From positions 11,992-75,991 of the forward strand of contig CAVSQY010000014.1 in NCBI GenBank assembly GCA_963730285.1: DNA of 64,000 bases, given 5' to 3'. This document shows positions 11,260 through 61,460 of this stretch, in pieces. The stretch's first letter is position 1; each line of letters opens with the position of its first letter. This DNA is from an uncultured Actinomycetes bacterium. GTDB taxonomy: Bacteria; Actinomycetota; Acidimicrobiia; Spongiisociales; ZC4RG35. The notes beneath the pieces were generated by a model, which worked only from the letters and a program-made list of their open reading frames with translations, was not told the DNA's origin and did no database searches. The position numbers and the translations under genes are program-made.

Positions 11260-11892
11260 TCAGGAGTCGGGGTTGCTTCGATGTTTGCCCGGGCTCCAGC
11301 GTCCCGAGTCGTATGTCTCAGTGGCGAAGCTGAACGGCTCGTCCTCGAGATCGGTGGCCATGGTGTCGTTCCACCGGTTGAGAAAGCCGAAGAGGGAGAT
11401 GACCGCCATGATCTCCACGATCTCGCCTTCGGTGAAGTGCTCCCGCACAGCCCCGAAATGCTCCGGTGTGGCCATGCTCGGCTGGAGAGAGGCATCGCGC
11501 GCCAGCCGAAGGGCCGCCCGCTCGGCTTCGGAGTAGAGCGGGCTGGTCTCGAACTCCCACACCCTGGCGATCTTCTCGGAATCGACGCCACGCTCACGGG
11601 CGTCCACAGCTTCGTGTGCCTGGCAATACCGGCACCCGGCGGCCTGACTTGAAACGATCGCTATCAACGGCTTCAGTTCGATGGGAAGGGTGCCACTCCG
11701 CCAGATACTGGTGATCAGCTCGGAGAACGCGCGGAGGATCTCGGGTCGTCTCGCCATCGTGTAAAGGCTGTTGGGGACAAAGCTGAGGGTCTCGTCGTAA
11801 TGCCGGAAGAGCTCCTCCAGCTCGGGGAGGTCTTCACGGGGCAGCGGGTCTAGGTTTGCCACGCGTCGACCGGGCTCAGGCGAGCCGCACAT
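11260..11892 (-). CDS. Carboxymuconolactone decarboxylase (CMD/AhpD-like) family protein
   Basis: LKPLIAIVSSQAAGCRYCQAHEAVDARERGVDSEKIARVWEF – AhpD-like Cxx(H)C motif and fold-typical helices; start codon uncertain. Confidence 0.7.
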   Translation of the reverse strand: MCGSPEPGRRVANLDPLPREDLPELEELFRHYDETLSFVPNSLYTMARRPEILRAFSELITSIWRSGTLPIELKPLIAIVSSQAAGCRYCQAHEAVDARERGVDSEKIARVWEFETSPLYSEAERAALRLARDASLQPSMATPEHFGAVREHFTEGEIVEIMAVISLFGFLNRWNDTMATDLEDEPFSFATETYDSGRWSPGKHRSNPDS

Positions 11893-12147
11893 ACACCAGC
11901 AGGTTGGTTGATACCGCGGATGAAGCTGGAGCGGAGCCGTTGCGCCGGGCTTCCCACCTCGGTGTCGATCAGCCGCGGCAGCAGTTTCTCCCTAGGCCCG
12001 AGGCGGAGATACCGACCGCTTCCGAAAGAGAGTTGGTCGGCAGGGGTGGGATGGATGTCGAACAGAAAGGGGTCGGGATAGCGGTCTTCATCGAAGTTGG
12101 CCGAGATGCAGCATATCGGTGGTTGATAACGTACCCGGGTTGCGGAT

Positions 12148-13089
12148 ATGAAACAGCCACCTCGCATCGTTCTCGTTCTCAGTGAGAACTGGACCCTGAT
12201 CGACCCGAGAAACCCGCCCCAGCTTCTCGAGATGGCCCGTGTCGCCGAGGCCACGGGGATCGATACGGTGATGCTGTCCGAGCACCTTGTCCTCGGCGCC
12301 GCGGCAGGAGCCGCCGGGATAATGGGGAATCCGCGTGACTACGCGATGCCGGGCAACCAGGACCCGTCGACGCCTTGGCCGGACTCTCTCGTCCTGGCCG
12401 GGGCGATAGCAGCCGTGACCTCCAGGGTCAGGATCGCGCTGGCTGCGGTCATCGCCCCCTTGCGTCATCCTCTCCTCCTCGCCAAGCAGTTGGCAACGCT
12501 GGATCTGTTGTGTCGGGGCCGTCTCGTCGTGCAGCCGACGGTCAGCTGGCACGAAGACGAGTACGAGGCACTCGGTGTGCCATTCGGAGAGCGAGGCGCA
12601 CGCCTGGACGAGCATCTCGCGTCCTGGAGTCGGGTCTGGGCCGAATCGCCTGCCAGCTTCGCAGGGAGGCACTACCACTTCGAAGGGGTGTATCTCGAAC
12701 CGAAGCCGATGCGACCCGAAGGACCACACATGTGGATAGGTGGGAGCTCGGGACGCCTTGCCGTGATCCGACGGCTGGTCGACTACGGCAGCGGCTTCCA
12801 CCCACTGGGGCAACCAAGCGACGAAGAGCTGAGTCGGGTGCACCAGGCTCTTCGGAAAGCCGGCCGCGACCCCGAGGAATTGGAATGGGTCGGCGGTGTT
12901 CGGGGCCGATTCTCCGACGACCACTCGCCTGCAAATTTGGACGAGGCCCTGGAACAGGTTCCGGTCCAGGTGGCACGTGGCTTCGGTTCGATTTGCGTCA
13001 AGCCGTCTCAGTTCATCGATCGCATCGAAGAGCTGCCACGGTTCTGCGAACAGTTGGTGCAACGATTTGGCGAGTTGGCATCCCAATGA
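12148..13089 (+). CDS. LLM-class (luciferase-like) F420-dependent oxidoreductase
   Basis: 313-aa ORF, IVLVLSENWTLIDP...DTVMLSEHLVLG...GRLVVQPTVSWHEDEY... typical TIM-barrel LLM family. Stop overlaps the next start (ATGA at 13086-13089). Confidence 0.8.
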   Translation: MKQPPRIVLVLSENWTLIDPRNPPQLLEMARVAEATGIDTVMLSEHLVLGAAAGAAGIMGNPRDYAMPGNQDPSTPWPDSLVLAGAIAAVTSRVRIALAAVIAPLRHPLLLAKQLATLDLLCRGRLVVQPTVSWHEDEYEALGVPFGERGARLDEHLASWSRVWAESPASFAGRHYHFEGVYLEPKPMRPEGPHMWIGGSSGRLAVIRRLVDYGSGFHPLGQPSDEELSRVHQALRKAGRDPEELEWVGGVRGRFSDDHSPANLDEALEQVPVQVARGFGSICVKPSQFIDRIEELPRFCEQLVQRFGELASQ

Positions 13090-13871
13090 CGACCGAACGT
13101 GTCGCGGTCGTCACCGGTGGTGGCACCGGCATCGGCGCAGCAACAGCTTCTGTCTTGGCTCAAAGCGGAATGAATGTGATCGTCACCGGTCGACGCAGAG
13201 AGCCGATTGATGCGGTGGCCGAACGCATCGGAGGCGTGGCCATGGTGGCAGATGTCACCGAAGAGGACGACTGGGACCGGGTCATGATGTTCGCTGACAA
13301 GCGGTTCGGCGGAGTGGACGTGCTCGTGGCCAATGCCGGCATAGAGGCTTTCGGCTCGGTCGAAACGGTGACCCTCGACCAATGGCATGCCGTTCAGCAC
13401 ACCAACGTCGACGGCGTTCTGCTCGGGATCCGCGCGGTCGTCCCGGTGATGCGGCGGAGAGGCGGTGGGGCGATCGTGGTCGTCTCTTCTGTTGCCGGGC
13501 TCACCTCGGGGCCTCAGTACGCCGCCTATGTCACATCCAAGACCGCGCTCCTCGGTCTCGTTCGGTCCGCCGCCGTCGACTTGGGTCGCGATGGGATACG
13601 GGTCAACGCCATCTGCCCGGGATGGACTCGGACGGAGATGAGTGAGCGGGAGGCGGAACTGGTTGCCCGAGCAGAGGGGATCACCACAGGGGAACTGTGG
13701 GCGAGACTCGTCGCGCCGCTTCCGCTGGGCCGGGCGGCCGATCCCACGGAGATCGCGGCATGCGTCGCCTTCCTCGCCCGATCCGGGTCCTCCTTCATGA
13801 CGGGCGCCGCCGTCGTCGTCGACGGCGGGGGCTCTGCGGTCGACGTGGGAACGCTCGGCTTCAACCGATAG
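13086..13871 (+). CDS. SDR family oxidoreductase (short-chain dehydrogenase/reductase)
   Basis: MTTERVAVVTGGGTGIGAATA (TGxxxGxG), NAG motif VLVANAGI, catalytic YxxxK (YVTSKTAL). ATGA overlap with the upstream LLM gene. The ORF-track entry 12375..13871 has a spurious Arg-rich N-terminus. Confidence 0.85.
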   Translation: MTTERVAVVTGGGTGIGAATASVLAQSGMNVIVTGRRREPIDAVAERIGGVAMVADVTEEDDWDRVMMFADKRFGGVDVLVANAGIEAFGSVETVTLDQWHAVQHTNVDGVLLGIRAVVPVMRRRGGGAIVVVSSVAGLTSGPQYAAYVTSKTALLGLVRSAAVDLGRDGIRVNAICPGWTRTEMSEREAELVARAEGITTGELWARLVAPLPLGRAADPTEIAACVAFLARSGSSFMTGAAVVVDGGGSAVDVGTLGFNR

Positions 13872-14160: not shown

Positions 14161-14562
14161 TCACGCAGCCGGGGGAGACGGTGACGCTACCTCGATCCCG
14201 GCGGCGGCCGCTGCCGATCGCAGGCGATCGTCATAGACAACCATCCCCGCGAGGTCCTCGCCCAGAGTCGTCGCCGCGGCAAGGTGCAATGCATCGAGTG
14301 ATCGGAGATTTAGGGGTTCGAGCCGTCCGGCTCGGTCGAACACCTCGGCGTCGATCCGGATCACGTCGCTTTCCGCAAGAAGGCGCTCGGCCCGAGCCAT
14401 GGCGCGACCGCCGGCTCGGCCAGCAACACGCCGGAGCTCGGTTCGATGGAGGTCCGAGAGCACCCAGCGTTGGACTCCCAACCAGTGCCGTAGATGCTCG
14501 GTCTCTGCTTCGGGTCGAACGAGCTTCGCCAACGCCGACGTGTCGAGATACCAGATGACCAG
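14161..14562 (-). CDS. vapC: PIN-domain toxin VapC
   Basis: In-frame extension upstream of the track's TTG start reads (L)VIWYLDTSALAKLVRPEAETE... (PIN N-terminal D-T/S motif), later LDALHLAAA and YDDRL. No canonical ATG/GTG; start probably coupled to the antitoxin stop (TAG at 14563-14565 is in the same frame). Confidence 0.65.
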   Translation of the reverse strand: MVIWYLDTSALAKLVRPEAETEHLRHWLGVQRWVLSDLHRTELRRVAGRAGGRAMARAERLLAESDVIRIDAEVFDRAGRLEPLNLRSLDALHLAAATTLGEDLAGMVVYDDRLRSAAAAAGIEVASPSPPAA

Positions 14563-14859
14563 CTAGCGCTCCCCTTCTCGCATCTCTGCCAGGATTTCCG
14601 ACAGCGCGGGTCCCTGATCAGGTGGGATGTCGGCGTCCATTGCGGTAATAGCCTCCTCGAGAGAACGCCCCATGCCTGGTGCTATGCGTCCCTCGGCCAG
14701 CAAACTCTCATAACCCTCGGGTTGCGCAACGGGAGAGATCTTTGCCACCGGGCGACCCCGATCGGTTACCACGAAAGTCTCGCCGGCTTTGACTCTGCCC
14801 AGCCACCGACTGGCGTATCGCCGCAGCTCCCGGATCCCGATCGTGTTCATGTGCGACAT
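14563..14859 (-). CDS. vapB: Type II antitoxin, Phd/YefM-like (VapB partner)
   Basis: MSHMNTIGIRELRRYASRWLGRVKAGETFVVTDRGRPVAKISPV – classic Phd/YefM N-terminal fold signature; immediately upstream of vapC. Confidence 0.65.
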   Translation of the reverse strand: MSHMNTIGIRELRRYASRWLGRVKAGETFVVTDRGRPVAKISPVAQPEGYESLLAEGRIAPGMGRSLEEAITAMDADIPPDQGPALSEILAEMREGER

Positions 14860-15018
14860 AGTAGCACATTGGACCCGGTCGGATGAGCTCGTGTGACGGC
14901 ATCGGCGTCGAAGCCAATAGCCCAAACCTGTGCGTCACTCTGGTTTCGATAGCCCGATCCCAGGACCAAGTCGTCAAGAGTCTTTCAACGTTACGGGTGG
15001 GCTAGAGCCTTGATGACA

Positions 15019-15951
15019 TCACCACCCAGTTTGTCGGGTAAGTGTCTGGTGGTCGGTCAGTGGAGCGGTGACGTAGCTGGACGGTGTTTCAGACACTGAT
15101 GTCAGGATCTCGATCAATGCGGACGTGGCGGGTGGGTCTGGCGGATCACCGTATGTCGCGGCGTAGATGTGGCGGGCGATGCCAGTGAGCTGAGTGGTGT
15201 GGATGCCCGGCGCCCGGTGAGCTTGTAGCGCGAGCCCGTTGAGTATGGCGACGCCCATTCCTGCGGCCACCAGCGACTGGGCGATGACCGTGTCGTCGAA
15301 GGAGTGGACGATGCGCGGTGAGAAACCGGCGCCTTCGCATGCTGTGATCGTGGCGGCTCGACAGTGATCGCATCCGCCCACCCAGGCGGAGTCATGGTGG
15401 TCCTCGAGACGCTGGTGGGGTTTGTCGCTGACGAGGAAGAGAGGGTCATCCAGCAGATGGGTGAGTCGCATGCCTTCCACCTCTTCCAAGGGAATGTCGG
15501 CGTGCCGGAAGATCAAGGCGATGTCGACGTGCCCCGAACGCAGCATCTTCAAGCCCTCGGCCGGGTGGGCATCGACGAGGGTCAACTCGATTCCTGGACT
15601 GGATCTGGCCAGCTCGGTGGCTGCCTTCGTTACGAGGGTGCTGAGGACCGTTTGGAAGCCGGCGAGTCGTACCCGTCCGGCACGAAGTCCGACGTAGGCG
15701 TCCAGCTCGACAGATGCGGCGTTCAGTCGGCCCAGGATCTCTGTCGCCCGCTGCGCCAGGAGCTCCCCTTCGGGGGTGAGTCGGATGCCGCGCCCTACCC
15801 GTTGGATGAGCGTGGCTCCAGTGGCGGCCTGCAGCCGCGCCAGGTGGTGACTGACCGATGGCTGGGAGTAATGCAGCTCCTTGGCTGCTTCGGTCACCGA
15901 CCCGTGACGGGCAACCGCTTCCAACACCTTGAGATGAGTCAAGCTCAGCAT
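15019..15951 (-). CDS. LysR-family transcriptional regulator
   Basis: N-terminal HTH LTHLKVLEAVARHGSVTEAAKELHYSQPSVSHHLARLQ; LysR substrate-binding C-terminal region. Divergent from 16076..16711. Confidence 0.85.
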   Translation of the reverse strand: MLSLTHLKVLEAVARHGSVTEAAKELHYSQPSVSHHLARLQAATGATLIQRVGRGIRLTPEGELLAQRATEILGRLNAASVELDAYVGLRAGRVRLAGFQTVLSTLVTKAATELARSSPGIELTLVDAHPAEGLKMLRSGHVDIALIFRHADIPLEEVEGMRLTHLLDDPLFLVSDKPHQRLEDHHDSAWVGGCDHCRAATITACEGAGFSPRIVHSFDDTVIAQSLVAAGMGVAILNGLALQAHRAPGIHTTQLTGIARHIYAATYGDPPDPPATSALIEILTSVSETPSSYVTAPLTDHQTLTRQTGW

Positions 15952-16075: not shown

Positions 16076-16711
16076 GTGTCACTTGTACGTGTCCACAACT
16101 TCGCAATTTCGCTAGACGGTTTCGGTACAGGCGAGGGTCAGAGCCACGACGCACACTTCGGTCACGCCGGCGAAAGGTTGCACGAATGGATGTTCGCCAC
16201 CCGGTGGTGGGCCCAGTCCGGTGGCACTCGCGGCGTCGACGATGCCTTCGTCCAGCAGCATGATCCGGGGATAGGAGCCGAGATCATGGGTGCGGGGAAG
16301 TTCGGCCACCCCGGATGGCATGAAGACCCGGAATGGAAGGGCGCGTGGGGTCCCAACCCGCCGTTCCACACACCGACCTTCATCCTCACTCATCACACAC
16401 GCCCGTCGATCGAGATGGAGGGCGGCACGACGTACCACTTCATCGACGCTCCGCCTACCGAGGCGCTCGAGACGGCCCGGGAGGCAGCAGGCGGCCGGGA
16501 CGTGCGCATCGGCGGTGGCCCCACCGTCATCCGCGACTTCCTTGCTGCCCGGCTCATCGACCACATGCACGTCGCGGTGGTCCCGATCCTGCTCGGCCGT
16601 GGCGTACGTCTCTGGGACGGACTTGAGGGTCTCGAGAAGGACTACGAGATCGAAGCCACCTCCTCGCCCAGCGGTGTCACGCATGTGACCTTCACCCGTG
16701 CGGGCGTCTGA
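16076..16711 (+). CDS. Dihydrofolate reductase family protein (RibD C-terminal domain-like)
   Basis: MSLVRVHNFAISLDGF...RDVRIGGGPTVIRDFLAARLIDHMHVAVVPILLG – RibD_C/DHFR-like family. Confidence 0.8.
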   Translation: MSLVRVHNFAISLDGFGTGEGQSHDAHFGHAGERLHEWMFATRWWAQSGGTRGVDDAFVQQHDPGIGAEIMGAGKFGHPGWHEDPEWKGAWGPNPPFHTPTFILTHHTRPSIEMEGGTTYHFIDAPPTEALETAREAAGGRDVRIGGGPTVIRDFLAARLIDHMHVAVVPILLGRGVRLWDGLEGLEKDYEIEATSSPSGVTHVTFTRAGV

Positions 16712-16930
16712 ACCAAGCGACGGCTTATCGCCAGGGCAACCAAAGCGCCGGCCGGACTTGTTCGCCAGGTTCCCACCAATCCCACGCCAGACCCAAAGAC
16801 AAGGCCTGCATTGCTTTCTTCGGACTCCCTCGAAGGCCGGGTCAGCCGGTGACTTCGATCGGCTGCTATATGCGATGATGCTGGGATGGGATACGAGATC
16901 ATCCCGGCGACATCTTGCGGCCTCCCAGGT

Positions 16931-17005
16931 TATTGAATTGTGGGCCCACGTGGACTTGAACCACGGACCTCATCCTTATCAGGGATGCGCTCTAACCGGG
17001 CTGAG
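16931..17005 (-). tRNA. tRNA-Ile (anticodon GAT)
   Basis: Reverse complement GGGCCCATAGCTCAGCCCGGTTAGAGCGCATCCCTGATAAGGATGAGGTCCGTGGTTCAAGTCCACGTGGGCCCA; 7-bp acceptor stem, anticodon loop CTGATAA, T-loop TTCAAGT. Confidence 0.85.
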
Positions 17006-17091
17006 CTATGGGCCCCCGACTGGTAGTCAAGGACGAGGAATTGTATTCCCATTGCCGGACTGAGTCGAAGTTGGTTCCGGGACGGGCCTGA

Positions 17092-18003
17092 TCAGGGCGT
17101 GTAGGTGAATTCGAAGTTTGCCTGCCTATCGAACTCGTCGGTGACGTGCACGACGAAGGTGGTGTCGGGCGGAGCCGTCTCGAAGAACACCTTCTTCTCC
17201 CACTGGCCGTTCGCGCCCACCTCCACGGACGTCGACCCGTACTCGGAGGTGATCTGCACCAATGAGCCGGGCTCCCCGGACCCGTAATAGACGTCGAAGG
17301 GCGGGGTCTCCGAACAAGAGCCATATGAGGCGTTGGCGCTGAACTCGGCCGGCTTCTTCTCGGTTGTGCTGGTCGTGGGCTCGGTGGTGGTGGTGGTCGT
17401 TGTCGGGATCGCGTAGTAGACGGTCACCGATGCCTCCGACTCGTTGCCTGCGACGTCCCTGGCAACGAACCGGGCGACGTTCTTTCCCTCAGCCAGCACG
17501 AGGACGATGTGCCATTCGCCCGATTTGGCGACGTCTGCCTCGTACTTGCCGGCGAAGACCCGGGCACCAGGCTCGGTCACCCCGGCGAACGTGATCTTCT
17601 TCTCGGCGAATTCGGCCCCGTTCTCGGGAGACGTGACCTCGAGAAGAGGGGGCTCGGTGTCGCGTGCCTCAGTGGTCGTAGGCGCGACCGGCACGACAAC
17701 TGCAGTGGTCGGCGGGGTCGGCTCGGTCGTGACCGCGTCGGCCTCTGTGGTCGTGGTGACGATGGTGGTGGTCGTGACAGCCGGGATGGTGGTCGTCGGA
17801 GGTGACGTGTCCATCACCAGGGCGACACCGACCGCGGAGCCGAGCATCAGCAAGGCGACCGCCCATGCCGGCCGCAGCACGAAGCCGAGCACCCGCCTGC
17901 GGGTGGTGGATCCGGGAGCCACCGATGACAACTCGGCTGTCTCTATGGCCGCCCTCAACTTGGCCGCAGCCTCGCGACCCCGGGCGTCAAGATCATTCCT
18001 CAT
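17092..18003 (-). CDS. Anti-sigma factor (single TM) with Thr/Pro-rich linker and a two-domain extracytoplasmic module
   Basis: Cytoplasmic MRNDLDARGREAAAKLRAAIETAEL, TM VLGFVLRPAWAVALLMLGSAVGVALV, then TTTTxPT linker and two domains (Ig-like; then ...YGSCSETPPFDVYYGSGEPGS...DEFDRQANFEFTYT). Start overlaps the ECF sigma stop by ~11 nt; ORF-track start 18048 is probably too early. Confidence 0.65.
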   Translation of the reverse strand: MRNDLDARGREAAAKLRAAIETAELSSVAPGSTTRRRVLGFVLRPAWAVALLMLGSAVGVALVMDTSPPTTTIPAVTTTTIVTTTTEADAVTTEPTPPTTAVVVPVAPTTTEARDTEPPLLEVTSPENGAEFAEKKITFAGVTEPGARVFAGKYEADVAKSGEWHIVLVLAEGKNVARFVARDVAGNESEASVTVYYAIPTTTTTTTEPTTSTTEKKPAEFSANASYGSCSETPPFDVYYGSGEPGSLVQITSEYGSTSVEVGANGQWEKKVFFETAPPDTTFVVHVTDEFDRQANFEFTYTP

Positions 18004-18538
18004 CGGCCACCTCCAGACCCAGCTTCTCGGCGAGAGCCCGACGCCCACGAAACAGATGCACCTTGGCCGTGGCCGGACTGCACTCGAGGATCTCGGCGAT
18101 CTCGGCCACGGGACGGTCCTCGACGTAGAAAAGCGCGATCGTCTGTGCCTGCCGGTCCGGGAGCTTTCGAACGGTCTTCCAGAACTCCTCGTCCTCCGGC
18201 TCGAGCTGGGGAAAGGGCTGGTGACGTTGCCCGGCCAGACGGGCCAGGGCCTTCGCCTCGGCCGCCTTGCGTCTAAATCCCGATATCGCCTTGTTCGCCA
18301 CGACTCGTCTCACCCATGCTCCCGGTTTGTCATACCCGCTGATCCGATCCCATCGCTGGTGGGCGGCGATGAAGGCCTCCTGTGCCAGGTCTTCGGCACC
18401 GAGACGACTACCCGAAAGGGCGTATGCCAATCCGACGACCTCCCTGAACTCCCTGCGATAGAAGCTCTCGAAAGACTCATGACTGGTGACCCGCTCCTCA
18501 TCTAGTTGTGCCGACTCGGGCTTGGTTTCTGCGGTCAC
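17993..18538 (-). CDS. ECF (sigma-70 family group IV) RNA polymerase sigma factor
   Basis: Region 2 (FESFYRREFREVVGLAYALSGSRLGAEDLAQEAFIAAHQRWDRI) and region 4 HTH (LPDRQAQTIALFYVEDRPVAEIAEILECSPATAKVHLFRGRRAL). Confidence 0.85.
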   Translation of the reverse strand: MTAETKPESAQLDEERVTSHESFESFYRREFREVVGLAYALSGSRLGAEDLAQEAFIAAHQRWDRISGYDKPGAWVRRVVANKAISGFRRKAAEAKALARLAGQRHQPFPQLEPEDEEFWKTVRKLPDRQAQTIALFYVEDRPVAEIAEILECSPATAKVHLFRGRRALAEKLGLEVADEE

Positions 18539-18565
18539 GACATCACTCGCATCGGCAGGCCCCGT

Positions 18566-18589
18566 GGTTTACCTGAGTCCTTGTAAACC
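18566..18589. promoter_or_regulatory. Inverted repeat GGTTTAC-N10-GTAAACC in the divergent region between the ECF sigma operon and the secreted paralogue gene
   Basis: Read directly: ggtttacctgagtccttgtaaacc, 28 nt upstream of the sigma start (- strand). Confidence 0.3.
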
Positions 18590-18658
18590 TCTGAGGCGGC
18601 TCATGCGTGTGACGTCGGGACGGGTTCGGGAGACGAGAGATCAATGAAGGAGTGTCAA

Positions 18659-19549
18659 ATGCGCAGATGGTTCGCATTGCTGGCAGGGGTGGCGGCGATC
18701 GCCGTGGCCGGGACCGCTCTGGCCCTCACCGGGCCCGACATGGTCAAAGACGAGAAGACCGCAACCGAAACGACCGTGAAGATCGAGGCGACCACCACCA
18801 CGTTCGAGAGACGTGTGATAGCGGAGCCTGTGGTCTCCGAAAACGTCTCCGAAATCGTGGAAAAGGACGAGGGGGCCGAGGAGGAGCCAAAGCAGTCCGA
18901 CCCGGTCGAGCAGGTCGAGCCACGTGACCACATGCCCTTCGAGATCGCCATCCTCTATCCCAAGCACGGCCAGGTCTTCGAGAAGGGCGAGGCCGTGTTC
19001 GAAGGCAGCAGCGCCCCCGGGGCCAGGGTCTACGTGGGCGACCGCCAGGCCGACGTGAACGACGACGGTGGCTGGCGCATAGTCCTCGACCTGCAGCCCG
19101 GTGAGAACCACATCACCGTGAAGGCAACGGACGAGTCCGGCAATCATGGCGCCGACTCGGTCGGCGTGACCTACAGAGCACCCGAGCCAAAGAAGGAAGA
19201 GCCCAAGAAGGAAGAGCCGAAGAAGGAAGAGCCGAAGAACGAAGAGCCCAAGAAGGAAGAGCCCAATCCAGAGCAGCCGCACGAGTGGGAGTTCTCAGCC
19301 CACCAGGTCTACGGCGAGTGCAGCGAGACCCCTCCCTTCGACGTGTTCTGGGGCACGGGCAAGCCCGGGTCCGTCATTCACGTGCAGTCCGAGTACGGCG
19401 GCGGAAGCCGTGAGGTCAACCAGAACGGAGAATGGGAGATCAAGGTGATCTTCGAGAACGCTCCCATCGGCCAGGCCTTTGCCGTCAAGGTGAGGGATGA
19501 GTTCGACCACCAGCAGATGTTCGAGTTCACCAGGATCGCAGCCGACTGA
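18659..19549 (+). CDS. Secreted protein paralogous to the extracytoplasmic two-domain module of the adjacent anti-sigma factor; contains a (E)PKKEE repeat linker
   Basis: Signal peptide MRRWFALLAGVAAIAVAGTALA (SD gaaggag 7 nt upstream of this ATG). Domain 1 ...FEKGEAVFEGSSAPGARVYVGDRQADVNDDGGWRIVLDLQPGENHITVKATDESGN vs anti-sigma ...FAEKKITFAGVTEPGARVFAGKYEADVAKSGEWHIVLVLAEGKNVARFVARDVAGN. Domain 2 YGECSETPPFDVFWGTGKPGSVIHVQSEYGGGSREVNQNGEWEIKVIFENAP...DEFDHQQMFEFT vs YGSCSETPPFDVYYGSGEPGSLVQITSEYGSTSVEVGANGQWEKKVFFETAP...DEFDRQANFEFT. Confidence 0.7.
   Translation: MRRWFALLAGVAAIAVAGTALALTGPDMVKDEKTATETTVKIEATTTTFERRVIAEPVVSENVSEIVEKDEGAEEEPKQSDPVEQVEPRDHMPFEIAILYPKHGQVFEKGEAVFEGSSAPGARVYVGDRQADVNDDGGWRIVLDLQPGENHITVKATDESGNHGADSVGVTYRAPEPKKEEPKKEEPKKEEPKNEEPKKEEPNPEQPHEWEFSAHQVYGECSETPPFDVFWGTGKPGSVIHVQSEYGGGSREVNQNGEWEIKVIFENAPIGQAFAVKVRDEFDHQQMFEFTRIAAD
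19192..19266 (+). repeat. Tandem 15-bp repeat (x5) encoding EPKKE linker
   Basis: ccaaagaaggaagagcccaagaaggaagagccgaagaaggaagagccgaagaacgaagagcccaagaaggaagagccc. Confidence 0.6.
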
Positions 19550-19615
19550 CTTCCCGACCGAGGTCCACAGCAAGGGGTCCCGGCTCTGCCGGGGCCCTCT
19601 TGCGTGTCTAGGTTG

Positions 19616-22399
19616 TCAGGACGAGCCGCCCGGATTCAGCACCTTCTGGAGTAGCTCGGGGATGTCCTGAAACACCAGGAAGTAGGCACTCGGGTCACAA
19701 TTGCAGGTCTGTGGCGGCGGCTTCTTCTGTGGCTCCTTCTTTTGACAGTCCGGCTCCTCGTTGACGTCGCGAACGTTCATCCGGAACCTCTCGCCATCGT
19801 GCACCGAGGTGGCCACCACCACGAAGTCCTCGTTGAAGGCCGTCTCCTCAGTGGGGAAGTCGGTCCATTCGCCGCTCGGGCTTCCCACCTTCCCCGGCCG
19901 ATACGACACTTGCACTTCCTCTCCCATCTCCCCGGTGACGCACGCATACTGACCGGAGGGGATGCTCACCTCCCAGCGAGCCGCCTGGAAGGCGTTGAGT
20001 TCCAGCTCGTAGTTGCCGGGGCCATCGAGCGATTTGGTGACCTTGGGCGGCTGATAGGCGATGAAGCCTCCTCCGGTGTCGGTGACGGCCACGTCGGTCA
20101 TGTGCTTGGAGAAGCTTTGATACATCCCGCTCATCTCATCTCGATTGGCCAGCTCGACCTGATCGAGTATCGGGTTGTTGCCACCGGGCAGGGCTTGGAT
20201 GATCTGGCCCAGCTCTTCATCGCCGAGAACGTTTACGACGTCCTGGAAGAAGATCCAGTTGTCGGCGCCCCTCTCGACCATTGGGCGTGAGGTCTCCTCC
20301 GCCCTCATGGCTGGGGCCAGTCTCCACTCCAGGTTCACGCCCGGATACACGACGTTGCTCATGTATTCGGCGAGGGCGTGGTTCCACCAGCGTCTTGCCA
20401 GATAGGTGGCCCCGGACTGACCGGGGAACAACAACGGGATGTAACAGTGGGCGATGTCGGCGGCCAGCTGCTGCTTGAAGTGGTCTGGGTTGCGCGGCTG
20501 CATCGGCTTGTTGATGAACACAAGGCAGACCGAGGGGTCGATGCGCTGCTCCACGAAGGTGTACGAGCCGCCGTGATGGGACAGCAACATCCAAATGCAC
20601 ACCGGCGGTGTGCCGTACTTGGCGATCGAGTCAGTCAATGCCTGCTGGGCCCAGAGCAGATGCGTCTCCCGACTCCAGCCATCTTCCTGACCTGCGATCG
20701 GAAACAGCACCGCACCTACCCATGCCCCGTATGTTCCGAGCTCGTAGCCGCTGGTGTCCCAGCCCGCCTGTTTCGGCTCGAGTCCGGCGCACTCGCCCGG
20801 CTCGATCGGCGGAGCGGAATAGTCGTGCGGCACGTCGTCATCGGGTGAGGCATAACCCCGGTCCTCACTGCCCTCTTGAAGCTGCTCCTCATCCGGGGGA
20901 GGCTCCTGCGCCAACAGGTCCGGGAAGATGAAGTCGCCCAGCGCAACGGTGAGCGACTTCGACGTCTCCGGGGGCGCCGTCCTGTTGAACCTCGGGGTCA
21001 GCAGGTCGAGAAGACGGGTCACCTCGTCCTTGGCCGGCCCCGGTTCGGCGGTGTCGAGGTACTCCTCCGCCAGGCTGATGATCCCCGTCCCGGAGTAGTC
21101 GAGCAGTTCGGGGTGTCGGAGCACGGCCCCGGAGTCGGCCTCGTCGGCGAACAGCTTCAGCGTGGCGATCAGCCCATCCTCGTGGGTCCACTCACCCGCC
21201 TCTTCCTTGGCCAGCAGGTTGTCGACATAGCCGAGGTTGGAGAGGTCCGGCTTTTCCTGCTGCACGATGATCGGGCCGCCCGGGATTCGGCCCAGTGCCT
21301 TGCTCGCCAGCTCCTTGGCGGTGTCGAACTGCTCATCAGGCCCCAGGTCGGGCAACGCCAGGACAATGCGGAACATGGCCCCACTCCATGCGACAGAGAT
21401 GACGTCTGCTTCGTGTGGGGAGGCGAACCCGCCTCCGGCCGGCACGTTCTCGAACCACATCGCAGAGTCGCCGACGCCATCCAACGGGACTCCGGGCACT
21501 CCATCGATGTTTGCGCCATCGCCGAAGTCTGATTCTGCAGCGGTCTGGACCTTGACGTATATCTCGGTGAGGATGAGCTTGGTGCACTCGAAGTCGCCGA
21601 ATTGGGTCAGATCGGCGACTTCGCCGAAGTTGTCCGACACGAAGACGTGATCCATCGCCGCGGCGCGGCCTTCCCGCTCCGGAGCGAGGAGGGCCTCGGC
21701 CTCCTGGTCGGTGACCAGGTCACACAAGTCGGCTTCGATCGGCTCTGGCGGTCCCAGCACCACCATGTCGATCGCTGACGCGGCGAGACCCTTGGCCAGG
21801 TCGAGGCGGTCCTGGTCACTGACGTCGGGTCGGCTTATCGAGAGCCTGATGAACAGATAGGCCTGTTCGGTCTCGGTGACGACACTCAGGGTTCCCATGT
21901 CTCCGCCACCGAACCACATCGCCACCTGGCCGACCCCGGACACGGGGACGCCGGCCACATCATCCAAAGTCGCTGCCGATCCGAAATCGTCGGGACTGCC
22001 GGGCTCGAGCTGGGCAGACCGCCCCTGCATGGCCGGCACATCATCGGGAGGTTGCCAGAGACAGCCCTCGTGTCCGGAGAACTGGATCAAGCCCACGTCA
22101 TCTGGAAGCCCGAGGGCGACGCCGACATCGTCGATCGAGATCAGGGTGCACCCGTCGAGCGGAGGGATTTGATGTCCTGTGTTGGCGGAGGTCGGGTCGG
22201 TTGATGGTGTCGGCCCCGAAGGGGAGGTTGTCGATGTGGCGGCCGCTTCCGGGCCTGAATCTCCCAGACGGCCGATGACCGCGACGATGACTGCGAGGGC
22301 AACGAGCCCGACGACCACCACCGGGAAGGGCTTGCCTTTCAGGAGATTCGTCAACGGGCTTCTGTCTTGTCGGCCTGGCTCCGGGCCTCCGGGGTCCAT
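19616..22399 (-). CDS. Large membrane-anchored extracytoplasmic protein (927 aa), two N-terminal Cys-containing DUF3558-like repeats plus a large uncharacterised C-terminal domain
   Basis: N-terminal TM (FPVVVVGLVALAVIVAVIG), Ser/Thr/Pro linker, two repeats each with C...C..W pattern (LDGCTLISIDDVGVALG...GCLWQ; ADLCDLVTDQEAEAL...FECTKL). C-terminus EEPDCQKKEPQKKPPPQTCNCD. Co-directional with, and 76 nt downstream of, the giant regulator gene. Confidence 0.65.
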   Translation of the reverse strand: MDPGGPEPGRQDRSPLTNLLKGKPFPVVVVGLVALAVIVAVIGRLGDSGPEAAATSTTSPSGPTPSTDPTSANTGHQIPPLDGCTLISIDDVGVALGLPDDVGLIQFSGHEGCLWQPPDDVPAMQGRSAQLEPGSPDDFGSAATLDDVAGVPVSGVGQVAMWFGGGDMGTLSVVTETEQAYLFIRLSISRPDVSDQDRLDLAKGLAASAIDMVVLGPPEPIEADLCDLVTDQEAEALLAPEREGRAAAMDHVFVSDNFGEVADLTQFGDFECTKLILTEIYVKVQTAAESDFGDGANIDGVPGVPLDGVGDSAMWFENVPAGGGFASPHEADVISVAWSGAMFRIVLALPDLGPDEQFDTAKELASKALGRIPGGPIIVQQEKPDLSNLGYVDNLLAKEEAGEWTHEDGLIATLKLFADEADSGAVLRHPELLDYSGTGIISLAEEYLDTAEPGPAKDEVTRLLDLLTPRFNRTAPPETSKSLTVALGDFIFPDLLAQEPPPDEEQLQEGSEDRGYASPDDDVPHDYSAPPIEPGECAGLEPKQAGWDTSGYELGTYGAWVGAVLFPIAGQEDGWSRETHLLWAQQALTDSIAKYGTPPVCIWMLLSHHGGSYTFVEQRIDPSVCLVFINKPMQPRNPDHFKQQLAADIAHCYIPLLFPGQSGATYLARRWWNHALAEYMSNVVYPGVNLEWRLAPAMRAEETSRPMVERGADNWIFFQDVVNVLGDEELGQIIQALPGGNNPILDQVELANRDEMSGMYQSFSKHMTDVAVTDTGGGFIAYQPPKVTKSLDGPGNYELELNAFQAARWEVSIPSGQYACVTGEMGEEVQVSYRPGKVGSPSGEWTDFPTEETAFNEDFVVVATSVHDGERFRMNVRDVNEEPDCQKKEPQKKPPPQTCNCDPSAYFLVFQDIPELLQKVLNPGGSS

Positions 22400-22474
22400 C
22401 AGTCCGCCTTAGGGCTACTGAAACCCAAGATACTCATGTGGACCGGGGTGGGGCGGCCGCGGCCCCGTCTGCCG

Positions 22475-25400
22475 TCAACTCAAGGTGAGGTCGGCGAAAT
22501 TGGCCCAGGATTTGCCGAATTCCCACCAGCCCTCGACAAGGGGTCGCCTCAGGGAGGTGTTCCTCGTGTAGACCAATGGGATCACCGCAGCCAGCTCGGC
22601 CACGGCGAGTCGGTCTGCCTGGTGGAAGAGCCCGAGCCGGGTCCGCTCGTCGCGCTCCATTCGGGCCCGCTCGACCAGGTCGTCGAATGCCTCGCTGGAG
22701 AATCTCCCGGTGTTGTCTGCTCCCTCGGTGTGAAGCAGCAGCCTGAGGAAGTACTCGGGATCGGTGTATCCCGGATACCACCAGGTTGGAGCGATATCGA
22801 CATCTTCCCAAACCTCACGAAGTCTTTGGGAGGAGGGGCCCAGAGTCGTGGTCTCCACCTCGATGCCCAAGTGTCGGCGCCACTGGCCGGCGGCTCTCTC
22901 CACCAGAGTCGTATAGACGATGTGGGGTATATCGAAGGCTGCCATCCGGATCGGCGCATCCGGTCGTGCCTGGCCGACGAGCGACCGCGCCAGGTCGACG
23001 TCGAAGACCGGTGCGACGTCGGGCGTGTGCCCGGCAAGTGCCGGGGGGACCACGCCACCGGTGGCCGGGATCAGATGCTCGCCCAATCCTTCGCACAGGG
23101 CGGCTCGATCCAACGATTGGGCCAGGGCGAGGCGAAGACGGGGATCGGCCATGTTCTTTCGGCCATGGTTGAGAACGAAGTAGATGAGCCCTGCCGTCGG
23201 TTCCCGATTCACCAGATCGGTTGGGATCTGCTCCGACCCGGCGCCGTCCCATGGCCCGCTGATCCAGGCGAGGTCGTGTCGTTCGTCGAGAAAGCCCTCC
23301 ATGACCTCGTTGACGGGCGCGGTGTGCCACACCACGGTCTCCACGTTTCCGAGACGATGGCCGACATAGTCGGGTCGGCGATCCAGGACGACACGATTGG
23401 CCTTGTGCTCAGTCCGACGGAAGGCTCCGCTGACCACCTCGACATCGAGATCGCACCACCGCTCGGGTTCCGCTTCGATGACATGACGGGGCTGAGGGCC
23501 GCAGTCCGGCCGGTTCAACATGCCGAGGAAGTAAGGAGCGGGCGCATTCAATGAGAACTGAACGACCCTGTCGTCCAACGCTCTCACGCCGATCAGGTCG
23601 GGGTCACTGCTGCGACCAAGCGCATGGTCGGCGGCGCCTTCGAGGACATAGAGCATGGCCACGCTCACCCCGGGGGAGTCGGGGTCGAGGTTGCGTTTCA
23701 GACCGAACTCGACGTCGTGGGCGGTGAGTGGGGCCCCGTCAGACCATTTGAGCCCGTCACGGAGGGTGAACCGGTAGATGAGACCGTCGTCGGAGATCTC
23801 CCAACGCTCCGCCAGGGAGGGGACGATGGTGTCGTCGGGCCATCTCTCCACCAGACGATCGAAAAGCGCCATCTGCAGCTGGATGTCCTGGAGGGCGTAG
23901 GAGCGGACCGGGTCGGGGACATCGAAAAAGGCCGGACCGGCGAAAAGGAGCGTCTCGGTGGCCTCCTGGCTCGGTGCGGGGCTCCACAGCTCGAAGGCCC
24001 TCTGATAGGTGGCGTTCGCCTCGGCGAACCGGAGGGCGGTGTGATAGGCCAGCCCCAACTTGAACAGGACCAGCGTGGTGGTGGGCGTGTCTCCACTCCC
24101 CTCCAGGAGAGGGAGAAGCTGTCGATAGTGCTCGATTGCCTCCTCCAAGGCATGGCGTCCCCGAGCCAGATCGCCTGCCCGTAGCAACGCTGGGGCGGCC
24201 CGGTCGTCGACCCCTGCCGCCGTCCAATGCCGGGCTAGAAGCTCAACGACCTCTTCGTCATTCCCCTCGAATTGGCGTTCCAGCCACTCGGCGGCATGTC
24301 GGTGCAGGGCCCGTCTCCTACCCTCGGGAAGGGTGCGATAGGCGGCCTCACGGGTGAGGGCGTGCTTGAACAGATATTCCGCCTGCGGCCATCGGCGTGC
24401 CTCGACCAGCAGGTCAGACCTCAAGAGGTCCTGGACGGCGGGAAGGACCCCACCTCTCTCGTCGGCGATGCCCTGGAGCAGGGGGAGGCCGAAGCTCCGG
24501 CCCAGCACTGAGGCCGAGGTCAGCACCATGTGGGTGGAAGGATCGAGACGGTCGATGCGCGACTGGACCACCTTCTCCACCGTCTCAGGCACGGTCAGGG
24601 CAGCGTCACGGTCGAAGACCCATCCCGACCCCGAAGGGGTGAGGGCGCCCTCATCGATCAGCGACCCGATCAGCTCCTCGAGATAGAAGGGGTTCCCCTC
24701 GGAGAGGTCGAGGAGCCGCCCGGTGGTCTCCTCGGGGAGATCGGCGGTGCCGAGTAGCGAGGAAAGCATGGCTCGTTGGTCGGAGTCGCCGAGGGCGCCG
24801 AGTGTGATCTCGGTGATCAGATGGGGCACCCGATGCCGGGCCGCCTCTGCGATGCGCCACGACACGTGACCGGGAGACGGGCGGCTGCTGACCACATACA
24901 GGATGCGGTGACTCTCGGCGAGTGAGGTCAGATTCCCTAGAAGCTCCACCGAAGTCGGGTCGGCCCAGTGGGCGTCTTCGATAACCATCGCGGTGGGGGA
25001 CCTCTCTGAGATGGCAGTGAGCAGCTCTGCCACCACCTCGAACGTGCGGAATTGGATTGCTTCCGGCGCCAGCGATAGCCGGGTCTGCTGGTCGGGGGTC
25101 AGGCTGAGACCGAGAAGACGCGTCAGATAGGCATACATCGGCTCGGCCGGCTCGTCCAGCAGCTCTTCGAGGCGGTTGTGCAGCGTTCGCCGGGAGGGGA
25201 GGTCCTTTTCGTCGATGCCCAACCCGAGCCATGACCGGATCAGGTCGCGGAACGGCCAGTAGGGGGTGGCCTCACCGTAGGGATCACAGTGACCGAGCAG
25301 CCAGGTAAACCCGATCCCGGAAGGCGACCGGCGCAGCTCGGAGATGATCCGAGTCTTTCCCACGCCGGCGTCGCCACTGAGTACCAGGACTCCGCCGATG

Positions 25401-26740
25401 CCGCGTTCGAGCGATTCGAGCATGTGGCCCGCCTGGGCCATCTCTGACTCACGACCGACAAGTGGGGCGCGGAGACGTCTTCCCAGCCTTGCCTTGTCGG
25501 CGGTTCGGCGCACCGCCGTCGGCCGCCACATGACTCCCGATCCCGAAGAAGCGGACTCCTCCCAGTCGAAGGCGTCGATCATGAGACGACGGGTGTGGTC
25601 GTCGACCAGCACCGAATGGGGGCCTGGGTCGCTGAGCATTGTCTGAAGCGGTCCCTCTTCCATGCCGAAACCGGTCTCGAAGGGCAGTGTCACCGGCAGT
25701 GTGGACACGACACACCGGCCCTCACCGGTGGGCCCCAATGTCTCCCCGACGGCCAGCGCTGCCCGGATGGCTCGATAGGTGTCGTCCTCACGGGCGATGG
25801 GTGCCCCGAAGACGGCAAGGGCACGCGTCCCGTCTTCGTCGACGATCGTCCCTCCGAATCGGGCCAATGCCGAACGCGTCGCCTCTAGTGCGGCGGCCGA
25901 GCCGGTGGCCACCAAGAGCAGGGTGGCGAGCCGGTTCCCTGGGGGCAATGGCCGACCGATGACAGTTGCAGGACGGGCCTGCGGTCGATGTGACGGGGAT
26001 GGCGAGAGAGTCGGGTCCTGTGCCAGGATCCGATCGAGCAGGTTCTGGAGCTCGGGCCCAGGCTCGATCCCCAGTTCCTCGATGAGAAGCGCGCGCACGG
26101 TGTCGAAGGCCCGAAGTGCGTCGGCCTGCCGGCCCGAACGATAGAGCGCCAGCACGTATCGGCTCCACAAGTCCTCACGCAACGGGTGCTCTTCGAGCAG
26201 GGAGTGGAGGTCGACTGCGGCCTGGTCGTGACTGCCGGATCGGAGTTGGGCATCGGCCATGTCGACCTGGGCCTGAAGACGCACCGCCTCCAATCTGGCC
26301 TTGAGCGGGCGGACGACGTCGGCCTCGCGGGCGTCCACCAGGGGCTCGCCACGCCACCAGGAGAGGGCCTCACCGAGCCGACCGACCGTCGTCTCCGGGT
26401 CCTCCCACGTCGCCTCCCTGGCCTCGGTGACTGCCAGGACGAATCGGTGGGCGTCGACGTCTGATGTCTCGAGTGCCAGCTGGTAGCCGGGACCCTTGGT
26501 GGCGATCAACCCTTCGGGGAGCACCGAGCGCAGATGGTGGATGTAGGTCTGAAGTGCTTTGGCCGCCGTCGCCGGAGGGGTTTCGCCCCAAAGGCCGTCG
26601 ATGAGCCTGTCGCTGGTGATCAACCTTCCCACGTCGGCCGCCAGCAACGTCAGAAGGGCGCGCTCCATCGGACGACTGACCTCGATTCGGTGGCCATCGT
26701 CACTCAATTCCAGCGGTCCGAGCACCCCGACGAGCACCAC
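22475..26740 (-). CDS. 1421-aa multidomain one-component regulator: SARP-type winged-helix DNA-binding + BTAD / degenerate class-III cyclase-like domain / STAND (NB-ARC-like) P-loop ATPase / helical-TPR region / C-terminal solute-binding-protein family 5 (SBP_bac_5) domain
   Basis: aa 1-250: LGPLELSDDGHRIEVSRPMERALLTLLAADVGRLITSDRLIDGLWGE + BTAD (…YRSGRQADALRAFDTVRALLIEELGIEPGPELQNL). aa 270-390: cyclase-homology-like RLATLLLVATGSAAALEA...FGGTIVDEDGTRALAVFGAPIAREDDTYRAIRAAL (metal-binding Asp positions not conserved). Walker A VLVLSGDAGVGKT (aa ~451-463), Walker B MVIEDAHWAD, GNPFYLEEL motif. aa ~935-1421: ...LAERWEISDDGLIYRFTLRDGLKWSDGAPLTAHDVEFGL = canonical SBP_bac_5 signature (DppA/OppA/NikA family). 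No signal peptide, so the SBP domain is cytoplasmic. Confidence 0.85.
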   Translation of the reverse strand: MVLVGVLGPLELSDDGHRIEVSRPMERALLTLLAADVGRLITSDRLIDGLWGETPPATAAKALQTYIHHLRSVLPEGLIATKGPGYQLALETSDVDAHRFVLAVTEAREATWEDPETTVGRLGEALSWWRGEPLVDAREADVVRPLKARLEAVRLQAQVDMADAQLRSGSHDQAAVDLHSLLEEHPLREDLWSRYVLALYRSGRQADALRAFDTVRALLIEELGIEPGPELQNLLDRILAQDPTLSPSPSHRPQARPATVIGRPLPPGNRLATLLLVATGSAAALEATRSALARFGGTIVDEDGTRALAVFGAPIAREDDTYRAIRAALAVGETLGPTGEGRCVVSTLPVTLPFETGFGMEEGPLQTMLSDPGPHSVLVDDHTRRLMIDAFDWEESASSGSGVMWRPTAVRRTADKARLGRRLRAPLVGRESEMAQAGHMLESLERGIGGVLVLSGDAGVGKTRIISELRRSPSGIGFTWLLGHCDPYGEATPYWPFRDLIRSWLGLGIDEKDLPSRRTLHNRLEELLDEPAEPMYAYLTRLLGLSLTPDQQTRLSLAPEAIQFRTFEVVAELLTAISERSPTAMVIEDAHWADPTSVELLGNLTSLAESHRILYVVSSRPSPGHVSWRIAEAARHRVPHLITEITLGALGDSDQRAMLSSLLGTADLPEETTGRLLDLSEGNPFYLEELIGSLIDEGALTPSGSGWVFDRDAALTVPETVEKVVQSRIDRLDPSTHMVLTSASVLGRSFGLPLLQGIADERGGVLPAVQDLLRSDLLVEARRWPQAEYLFKHALTREAAYRTLPEGRRRALHRHAAEWLERQFEGNDEEVVELLARHWTAAGVDDRAAPALLRAGDLARGRHALEEAIEHYRQLLPLLEGSGDTPTTTLVLFKLGLAYHTALRFAEANATYQRAFELWSPAPSQEATETLLFAGPAFFDVPDPVRSYALQDIQLQMALFDRLVERWPDDTIVPSLAERWEISDDGLIYRFTLRDGLKWSDGAPLTAHDVEFGLKRNLDPDSPGVSVAMLYVLEGAADHALGRSSDPDLIGVRALDDRVVQFSLNAPAPYFLGMLNRPDCGPQPRHVIEAEPERWCDLDVEVVSGAFRRTEHKANRVVLDRRPDYVGHRLGNVETVVWHTAPVNEVMEGFLDERHDLAWISGPWDGAGSEQIPTDLVNREPTAGLIYFVLNHGRKNMADPRLRLALAQSLDRAALCEGLGEHLIPATGGVVPPALAGHTPDVAPVFDVDLARSLVGQARPDAPIRMAAFDIPHIVYTTLVERAAGQWRRHLGIEVETTTLGPSSQRLREVWEDVDIAPTWWYPGYTDPEYFLRLLLHTEGADNTGRFSSEAFDDLVERARMERDERTRLGLFHQADRLAVAELAAVIPLVYTRNTSLRRPLVEGWWEFGKSWANFADLTLS

Positions 26741-26779
26741 ACAACCGTACCGAGATCGATTGCGGCACAGGGCGCCTTC

Positions 26780-26799
26780 TTACCGGGCGTTTACCGGGC
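26780..26799. promoter_or_regulatory. Direct repeat TTACCGGGC x2 with 11-bp phasing in the divergent regulator/DUF4242 intergenic region (candidate SARP-type binding site)
   Basis: cTTACCGGGCgtTTACCGGGCt at 26779-26800; located 40 nt from the regulator start (26740, -) and 50 nt from the DUF4242 start (26850, +). Confidence 0.35.
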
Positions 26800-26849
26800 T
26801 AGGGCAATTTCGACGCCGCAAGGGTCAATCGATCTGAGGAGGTATCAGA

Positions 26850-27103
26850 TGCCCCTGTTCATGGATGTGCACCAGCAACTGCCCGACGGTGCGACCGAAT
26901 CGGACGTGGCCGAAGCTCACGCCGCCGATCTGGCCACTCAGGACAGGTTCGGAGTCCACTACCAGCGGTACTGGGTTGATGAGAAGGCGGGCAAGGTGTT
27001 CTGTCTGGTGGAGGCACCCGACGCCGATGCCGCGGTCGCGGTGCACCGCGAGGCGCACGGGTTGGTCGCCGACGAGATCTACCCCGTCAGCGAACACAGT
27101 TGA
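26850..27103 (+). CDS. DUF4242 family protein (SCO4226-like), paralogue of 2312..2563
   Basis: MPLFMDVHQQLPDGATESDVAEAHAADLATQDRFGVHYQRYWVDEKAGKVFCLVEAPDADAAVAVHREAHGLVADEIYPVSEHS; strong SD gaggagg upstream. Confidence 0.8.
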
Positions 27104-55808: not shown

Positions 55809-55809
55809 G

Positions 55810-60253: not shown

Positions 60254-60269
60254 AGCCTTGGCCCGCTGA

Positions 60270-61385: not shown

Positions 61386-61460
61386 GAGTCAGACAGTATG
61401 AACGGGGATAGGCCGCAATTATCGGCGGTTGATGCTCGGCGACGGCCGCATGCACGCCGT

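Follow-up and report, generated by a model that had tools for sequence, protein, structure and literature searches.

The 64,000-nucleotide stretch of DNA analysed here (hereafter the window; GC content 63%) comes from an uncultured bacterium of the class Acidimicrobiia, and all the close homologues of its proteins are annotated as belonging to that class. Our subject is a group of three genes between positions 17092 and 19549. One encodes an extracytoplasmic function (ECF) sigma factor. The second, directly downstream, encodes a membrane protein that is a candidate for its anti-sigma factor. The third is read in the opposite direction and encodes a predicted secreted protein that is a paralog of the outer part of the membrane protein. 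The three genes are as follows.

17993-18538, minus strand: ECF (group 4) sigma factor gene, 181 aa, GTG start
17092-18003, minus strand: putative anti-sigma factor gene, 303 aa, directly downstream of the sigma gene
18659-19549, plus strand: secreted-paralog gene, 296 aa, divergent from the sigma operon

The sigma factor matches Pfam Sigma70_r2 at aa 26-92 (1e-13) and Sigma70_r4_2 at aa 117-169 (3.9e-14), and scores 73 bits against the NCBIfam family TIGR02937 (sigma70-ECF), for which the cut-off is 42.9. It has sigma2 and sigma4 domains only, no regulatory extension and a length of 181 aa, as expected of an ECF group 4 factor (about 180-200 aa). The nearest subfamily is SigE-fam_strep (TIGR02983), of which it is not a member (127.8 bits, below the cut-off of 141.55), and the nearest solved structure is that of SigW (E = 7e-13). 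The gene that follows begins at the ATG of MRNDLD, in an 11-nt overlap with the sigma stop codon, and yields 303 aa in the gene call on the public contig. A GTG at 18048, which appears as the start in the list of open reading frames, was considered and ruled out, the gene caller placing the start at MRNDLD. As for the divergent gene, its MRRW start is kept in about 58 homologues and has a Shine-Dalgarno sequence, AAGGAG, upstream at 18647-18652.

Sigma operon and paralog are separated by a 120-bp intergenic region, at the centre of which (18566-18589) sits GGTTTAC-N10-GTAAACC, a perfect inverted repeat whose 7-bp arms are 10 bp apart. The original prediction for this locus, made from the letters of the DNA, had picked out this palindrome as an element lying between the two genes. 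Promoters recognized by ECF sigma factors have a signature, namely an AAC-containing -35 element and a CGT-containing -10 element with 16-17 bases between them, and each arm of the repeat, read outward, can be taken as the start of such a promoter.

18545-18572, minus strand: predicted ECF-type promoter of the sigma/anti-sigma operon; -35 GTAAACC at 18572-18566 (the left arm), N16, -10-like CGAGT at 18549-18545
18583-18610, plus strand: predicted ECF-type promoter of the secreted paralog; -35 GTAAACC at 18583-18589 (the right arm), N16, -10-like CGTGT at 18606-18610

Comparison with relatives decides how the palindrome should be read. We collected 80 related loci from species-representative genomes (70 assemblies). 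Thirty-three of the loci have the divergent sigma/paralog arrangement, which makes 34 with the window. Both arms are present in all 34. The distance between them is 8-10 bp in close relatives, about 30 bp in others and more than 100 bp at the extreme, whereas each outward GTAAACC is followed by CG[TA]GT at a fixed 16 (rarely 17) bases. The motif facing the paralog is found in 34 of 34 divergent loci and that facing the sigma gene in 26 by the strict pattern, with CGTCT or CGATT in most of the others. Single arms also occur: 16 stand-alone paralogs (no sigma gene in the vicinity) have one arm and one -10 box each, and sigma operons without a divergent partner do likewise. Because the spacing between the arms varies, the spacing from -35 to -10 is fixed at 16-17 bases and unlinked paralogs carry a single arm, the palindrome is a pair of back-to-back -35 elements, each belonging to a predicted outward-facing ECF-type promoter. 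The sequence first noticed is real, and upstream of 18659, where a search for an ECF promoter had been suggested, one is indeed predicted (GTAAACC-N16-CGTGT). It is the notion of a single element that has to go.

With one mismatch allowed, the window contains exactly two matches, one facing each gene, where shuffled sequences lead us to expect 0.15. Across the related loci (1.14 Mb) we counted 99 matches, and every one except a single case lies immediately upstream of a sigma gene or of a secreted gene bearing the module. Counted by gene, and where there is enough upstream sequence, 43 of 46 sigma genes and 52 of 55 secreted-type paralogs, unlinked ones included, have the motif in front of them. 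A scan of the intergenic region for the sigma-70 consensus revealed no housekeeping-type promoter. The comparison among loci argues strongly that the sigma factor would transcribe its own operon as well as the gene for the secreted paralog, and we regard this transcriptional wiring as highly probable. On the sigma side, the -10 element ends 6 nt before the GTG start, and the sigma mRNA is probably leaderless or nearly so. Leaderless mRNAs are common in Actinobacteria. On the paralog side the leader is 48 nt long and includes a strong Shine-Dalgarno sequence.

The single match that falls elsewhere is in locus L029, at about 13937 on the minus strand, some 120 nt before an open reading frame for 869 aa (11209-13818, minus strand). 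It could be a chance occurrence or an extra member of the regulon.

How far does the conserved unit extend? When the open reading frames of the 80 loci were clustered all against all, only two groups proved to be widely conserved, the sigma factor (57 loci) and the proteins that carry the module (78 loci). All the other neighbours follow clade-specific synteny, as illustrated by a luciferase-like oxidoreductase found about 5 kb from the stand-alone paralogs. The membrane and secreted forms of the module occur together in at least 35 of the 70 species-level assemblies, in five of them on different contigs; these are lower bounds, since metagenome-assembled genomes (MAGs) are incomplete and the search yields no more than 80 loci. 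By gene content across these loci, the conserved unit is the sigma factor, the putative anti-sigma factor and the secreted paralog only.

The last two of these share a module of two domains, set out here with the other features that matter for its interpretation.

17410-17658, minus strand: immunoglobulin (Ig)-like domain 1 of the putative anti-sigma factor, about aa 116-198; strands with a predicted local distance difference test (pLDDT) score above 90
17095-17349, minus strand: C-terminal domain of the putative anti-sigma factor, aa 219-303, with the loop motif YGSCSETPPFDVYYG
17314-17316, minus strand: codon for the lone Cys of the anti-sigma ectodomain
18659-18724, plus strand: predicted signal peptide of the secreted paralog, aa 1-22, MRRWFALLAGVAAIAVAGTALA, followed by LTG
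18941-19183, plus strand: Ig-like domain 1 of the secreted paralog, aa 95-175
19286-19546, plus strand: C-terminal domain of the secreted paralog, aa 210-296, with the loop motif YGECSETPPFDVFWG; pLDDT about 95
19319-19321, plus strand: codon for the lone Cys of the mature secreted paralog

That an ECF sigma factor is coupled here to a putative anti-sigma factor whose sensor module recurs in a divergently encoded, signal-peptide-bearing protein was the core of the original prediction, and it has held up well. Identities estimated by eye at 33% and 55% for the two domains become, on alignment, 39% over 89 aa for the Ig-like domains (E = 2e-19) and 60% over 81 aa for the C-terminal domains (E = 1e-36); BLASTP aligns the two proteins over 205 aa with 40% identity (E = 1e-47). 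Structure prediction points the same way. With alignments of 29-30 homologues as input, AlphaFold gives both proteins two beta-sandwiches of Ig-like type (pLDDT above 90) with disordered linkers between. Searches with hidden Markov models could put a name to domain 1, the anti-sigma protein matching Pfam PF09136, Glucodextran_B (an Ig-like family), at aa 134-211 with 34.1 bits, above the gathering cut-off of 27. They could not do so for the C-terminal domain of the paralog, which no Pfam family matches. A profile of our own for the C-terminal domain retrieved 899 cluster representatives at E <= 1e-3, of both the membrane and the signal-peptide type, often with 3-6 tandem copies.

The paralog begins with MRR, a hydrophobic core of 19-20 residues and then ALA followed by L, which places small residues at -3 and -1; the pattern is seen in about 58 homologues. 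Nearly all of its 62 homologous clusters start MR[RK]W and continue with a hydrophobic stretch and an AxA-like site. We predict that the protein is secreted, with cleavage of a Sec-type signal peptide, although the long core could instead be an N-terminal membrane anchor. Its layout is signal peptide, acidic linker, Ig-like domain, Lys/Glu/Pro-rich linker and C-terminal domain. It has no cytoplasmic helix and consists of the sensing module only, with no catalytic or other effector domain.

In the family around the window, a loop in the C-terminal domain, YGxC[SDA]ExPP[YF]DV[FY]xG, is conserved in both classes of paralog, and by sequence comparison this conservation exceeds what the fold alone would require. 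The Cys column of the loop is C in 46 of 46 anti-sigma orthologues and in 49 of 53 secreted paralogs. There is exactly one Cys per polypeptide, invariably within this loop, in all 47 anti-sigma ectodomains and in 57 of 58 mature secreted proteins, and where the C-terminal domain has been duplicated in tandem the Cys is retained in one copy only. The pattern suggests a conserved, unpaired extracytoplasmic thiol, which might serve for an intermolecular disulfide, for redox or metal chemistry or for covalent attachment.

We turn now to the membrane protein, which runs from a cytoplasmic helix through a transmembrane segment and a Thr/Pro-rich stalk to the Ig-like domain and the C-terminal domain. 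Its first two elements are these.

17938-18000, minus strand: N-terminal cytoplasmic helix of the anti-sigma candidate, aa 2-22, motif LDxRARRAAxxL
17812-17868, minus strand: transmembrane segment of the anti-sigma candidate, aa 46-64, with RRR just before it

AlphaFold models the helix at aa 2-22 with pLDDT 71-79. Its motif is conserved across 47 loci, and among 30 orthologues L5, D6, R8, R10, A12, A13 and L16 are invariant or nearly so. Conservation this strong argues for a conserved cytoplasmic partner, and we propose the helix as the segment that would bind the sigma factor. All 47 orthologues have a hydrophobic stretch at aa 39-54 with a basic cluster before it, from which the positive-inside rule predicts an N-in topology. 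In all 47, too, start codon and sigma stop overlap (by 4 or 11 nt), an arrangement of translational coupling. Kinase or two-component genes conserved nearby were looked for in the 80 related loci and none was found. It is because of this coupling, the near-invariant N-terminal motif, the transmembrane segment, the absence of any extension on the sigma factor and the absence of a conserved kinase nearby that we think the membrane protein quite likely to be an anti-sigma factor, of a short type with a single helix. Short anti-sigma segments of the class II type do exist.

These pieces can be assembled into a mechanism. By means of its N-terminal helix the membrane protein would keep the sigma factor sequestered. 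Engagement or destabilization of the ectodomain would lead to removal of the anti-sigma factor, probably by regulated proteolysis, and the freed sigma factor would then transcribe its own operon together with the secreted paralog, its sole conserved target in the sampled loci. Because this product consists of the sensing module alone, we propose that the secreted copy would share the binding specificity of the sensor and so feed back on sensing. There are two routes by which it might. In the first, the secreted copy would pair with the membrane copy, possibly via the lone conserved Cys in the shared loop (YGxCSExPP[YF]DV), and the sensor would be measuring its own product. In the second, the secreted copy and the sensor would be rivals for one ligand or attacking agent, and the secreted copy would serve as decoy or buffer. 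By either route the output would titrate the input, and the response would be self-limiting. To the full circuit, an autoregulated ECF system with, as its dedicated output, a free copy of the sensor that feeds back on sensing, we give about even odds (a probability of roughly 0.5). A more specific version, in which the free ectodomain engages the membrane copy or its ligand through the Cys loop, possibly in a mixed disulfide, and thereby works as a soluble decoy receptor or as a device for sensing the product, is tentative and rather unlikely.

A number of points weigh against the circuit and should be faced together. Use of the two promoters by this particular sigma factor is deduced from the conservation of the motif and from the general ECF signature. 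Twelve assemblies have the anti-sigma form only and 18 the secreted form only, which the incompleteness of the MAGs and the ceiling of 80 loci could explain. In 31 paired genomes, the two proteins' C-terminal domains are more alike within a genome than across genomes (49.1% versus 46.6% identity, an excess of 2.5 points; permutation p < 0.0002), with no such excess for the Ig domain. This signal of co-evolution is lost when each of 11 clades is reduced to one representative (median p = 0.18), and therefore lends no independent support to a direct interaction. The folds are generic Ig-like ones that say nothing about the ligand. As for the membrane protein, no anti-sigma family in Pfam or NCBIfam matches it, and the anti-sigma role is assigned solely from position and topology. 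Its cytoplasmic part, about 40 aa with one helix, is too short for a class I anti-sigma domain (ASD, zf-HC2 or RskA-type; about 80-90 aa and four helices), and the protein does not belong to that class. A sequence search of solved structures returned nothing for it, nor for the 927-aa protein described below.

What else could account for the locus? The main rival is that sensor and secreted protein both bind one external ligand, a polysaccharide or a surface, and that the secreted protein is an adhesin or binding protein without any effect on signalling. There is a precedent for this logic in Clostridium thermocellum, where the sensor domains of RsgI proteins (CBM3, a GH10 with low catalytic activity, PA14) are homologous to modules of secreted proteins under the control of sigmaI (PMC4711584). 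In that organism sigmaI autoregulates, and its targets were found through shared promoter motifs (PMC4711584). The Ig- and CBM-like sandwiches of our two proteins resemble domains of adhesins, S-layers and glycosidase accessory regions, the conserved loop is rich in aromatic residues, and the tandem copies of the secreted form in other lineages are as seen in adhesins. The product here, however, is the sensing module only, and any binding by it would necessarily compete with the sensor. Moreover, a single conserved Cys is not expected for simple glycan binding, and no ligand can be identified. We consider this explanation a serious candidate, if on balance an unlikely one.

The sigmaI/RsgI systems are nonetheless the closest precedent for the arrangement in the window, since in both a sensor ectodomain is homologous to a secreted protein that the sigma factor controls or, here, is predicted to control. 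They differ in most other respects. The sigma factor here is a true ECF factor with a standard sigma4 domain, and SigI is not among the 25 NCBIfam families listed of the 76 it matched. The membrane protein, unlike RsgI, has no RsgI_N match, and on the cytoplasmic side it offers just one helix of some 20 residues. The predicted target here reproduces the entire ectodomain, lacks any catalytic domain and is apparently the sole conserved target, and the lineage is Acidimicrobiia. What the two share is a working principle, not family membership.

A second rival denies the membrane protein any anti-sigma role. It would be a mere membrane-anchored paralog, the sigma factor would be controlled by transcription, phosphorylation or a distant regulator, and both paralogs would be ordinary envelope proteins of the regulon. 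This view draws on the missing family match, on the cytoplasmic segment of about 40 residues and on the fact that none of the database sources labels the protein an anti-sigma factor. Set against these are the coupling to the sigma gene in 47 of 47 loci and the strongly conserved motif of the cytoplasmic helix. The sigma factor, moreover, has no extension through which it might be regulated, and its neighbourhood has no conserved kinase or two-component genes. We judge this second explanation to be improbable.

Returning to the autoregulated circuit, its parts have counterparts in better-known systems. SigW-RsiW and RpoE-RseA also combine a minimal sigma2-sigma4 factor with a co-transcribed, translationally coupled, single-pass partner and an AAC/CGT promoter of their own. 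Unlike them, the membrane protein here has no detectable class I domain or zinc motif and has two Ig-like sandwiches as its ectodomain, and the conserved regulon is seemingly one gene, a paralog of the sensor. Regulon-encoded proteins that act back on the outer domain of a sensor, giving negative feedback, are exemplified by CpxP, which is divergently encoded and works with CpxAR, and by RseB, which works with RseA. The paralog resembles them in being, by prediction, a regulon-encoded extracytoplasmic partner encoded beside the regulator genes, with the proviso that feedback is only proposed here (for modulators of the CpxP/RseB type see PMC4755656 and PMC4985592). CpxP and RseB, unlike the paralog, are not paralogs of the sensors they bind, and Cpx is a two-component system. 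In Mycobacterium tuberculosis, SigK-RskA controls a very small ECF regulon, mostly of exported proteins (mpt70/mpt83) encoded near the sigma and anti-sigma genes. The likeness is that of an actinobacterial ECF factor with a small regulon and an exported product encoded nearby (for SigK-RskA with mpt70/mpt83 see PMC7509140). The differences are that Mpt70 is a paralog of Mpt83 (FAS1 domain) and neither is one of the RskA sensor domain, and that RskA has a recognizable anti-sigma domain. Our full-text search of the literature, which also covered PF09136 and the ECF factors of Acidimicrobiia, turned up no ECF factor with a secreted copy of its anti-sigma ectodomain as dedicated target and no account of the present system. 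Neither decoy-receptor nor product-sensing logic is known to have been described for ECF signalling.

Two further explanations are far weaker. That the perfect inverted repeat, with its 7-bp arms, 10-bp spacer and intergenic centre, is the operator of a dimeric transcription factor co-regulating both genes is contradicted by the comparative data (arms 8 to more than 100 bp apart, each at N16-17 from its own CG[TA]GT, and single arms with a -10 box at unlinked paralogs and partnerless sigma operons), and we have rejected it as scarcely credible. The other concerns two large genes that lie beyond the paralog.

19616-22399, minus strand: gene for a 927-aa protein, convergent with the secreted-paralog gene
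22475-26740, minus strand: gene for a 1421-aa SARP regulator; SARP (Trans_reg_C + BTAD), AAA_16, TPR and SBP_bac_5

The original prediction had gathered all five genes, a block from 17 to 27 kb, into one envelope-signalling system, and this we now find very hard to believe. The genes are adjacent in the window, and the closest relative (L082) has the regulator, a 925-aa protein and a secreted-paralog gene within 10 kb; even there, two unrelated genes stand between the 925-aa/regulator genes and the paralog. L082 is also the only relative in which the 927-aa family lies beside the SARP-SBP5 regulator, and in L083-L085 the homologue occurs in unrelated contexts. No homologue of the 927-aa or the 1421-aa protein is present in the 80 related loci. 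A scan of the window found no promoter motif at either gene, and hence none upstream of 22399, where a search for an ECF promoter had been suggested. From gene content and motif alike, the predicted circuit includes neither the 927-aa protein nor the SARP regulator. Of the four genes put forward for phylogenetic profiling, the sigma factor, the putative anti-sigma factor and the paralog are conserved together, and the 927-aa gene is not.

The 927-aa protein has an N-terminal hydrophobic segment and, as had been spotted in the sequence, two tandem Cys-containing repeats (E = 4e-11) with two Cys each (Cys 84/113 and 226/272). The repeats are DUF3558-like, the score against that family (PF12079) being 21.3 bits, below the cut-off of 34.1. 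The C-terminal 550 aa or so have no match in Pfam, NCBIfam or the PDB. The family is small, at 21 clusters, and limited to relatives of the source organism. A KKEP tail said to match one in the secreted protein proved to be a likeness of low-complexity composition only, with no alignment once a low-complexity filter and composition correction were applied, and in the secreted protein the stretch is not a tail at all; it is the linker between the domains. Near homologues of the 927-aa protein we twice came across a YCII-domain gene followed by a gene for a sigma factor of about 400 aa with a DUF6596 extension (L082 9510-11194 and L085 4452-6043). In L082 the 925-aa gene and the secreted paralog have this pair between them.

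The 1421-aa regulator has a C-terminal SBP_bac_5 domain fused to SARP, AAA_16 and TPR in what appears to be a cytoplasmic protein. SBP_bac_5 is normally found in periplasmic proteins that bind peptides or nickel. The divergent neighbour of the regulator (26534-27103, plus strand) encodes an SCO4226-like 'nickel responsive' protein, and the same pair is present in the closest relative (L082 1937-6565). The two may form a metal- or peptide-sensing regulatory unit.

On the other side of the locus, a tRNA-Ile gene (anticodon GAT; 16940-17015, minus strand) lies 77 bp downstream of the putative anti-sigma gene on the same strand. An Rfam scan of 16800-22600 found this tRNA only, with no match in the intergenic region or the 5' untranslated region. 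Further away is a type II toxin-antitoxin pair (14161-14532 and 14563-14925, both on the minus strand), with a PIN-domain (VapC-like) toxin and a Phd/YefM antitoxin. The pair adjoins a LysR regulator (15019-15951) and a protein with a RibD_C domain (16076-16711). Two 2-kb bins far from the circuit have strong AT skew (-0.225 at 54001-56000 and +0.197 at 60001-62000).

What does the locus mean for the biology of these bacteria? ECF sigma factors are among the commonest signalling devices in bacteria, and for most groups both the signal and the output are obscure. The predicted circuit offers a clean case, with three genes, a sharp promoter motif and apparently one output gene, which is a copy of the sensor. 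Its promoters also carry a lesson for the annotation of operators from motifs, namely that what looks like a palindrome may be a pair of -35 boxes set back to back. The circuit is kept in over 50 related species and spans dozens of uncultured species of Acidimicrobiia, a class that has few cultured representatives and that recurs in the sampled metagenome assemblies. If the proposed feedback is true, nature would here provide sensor/decoy or product-sensing logic in minimal form, and the circuit could be rebuilt in a heterologous host. And should the secreted copy indeed act as decoy or as sensed product, the cell would be measuring and regulating the amount of an extracellular Ig-like protein, or neutralizing an agent that targets that protein.

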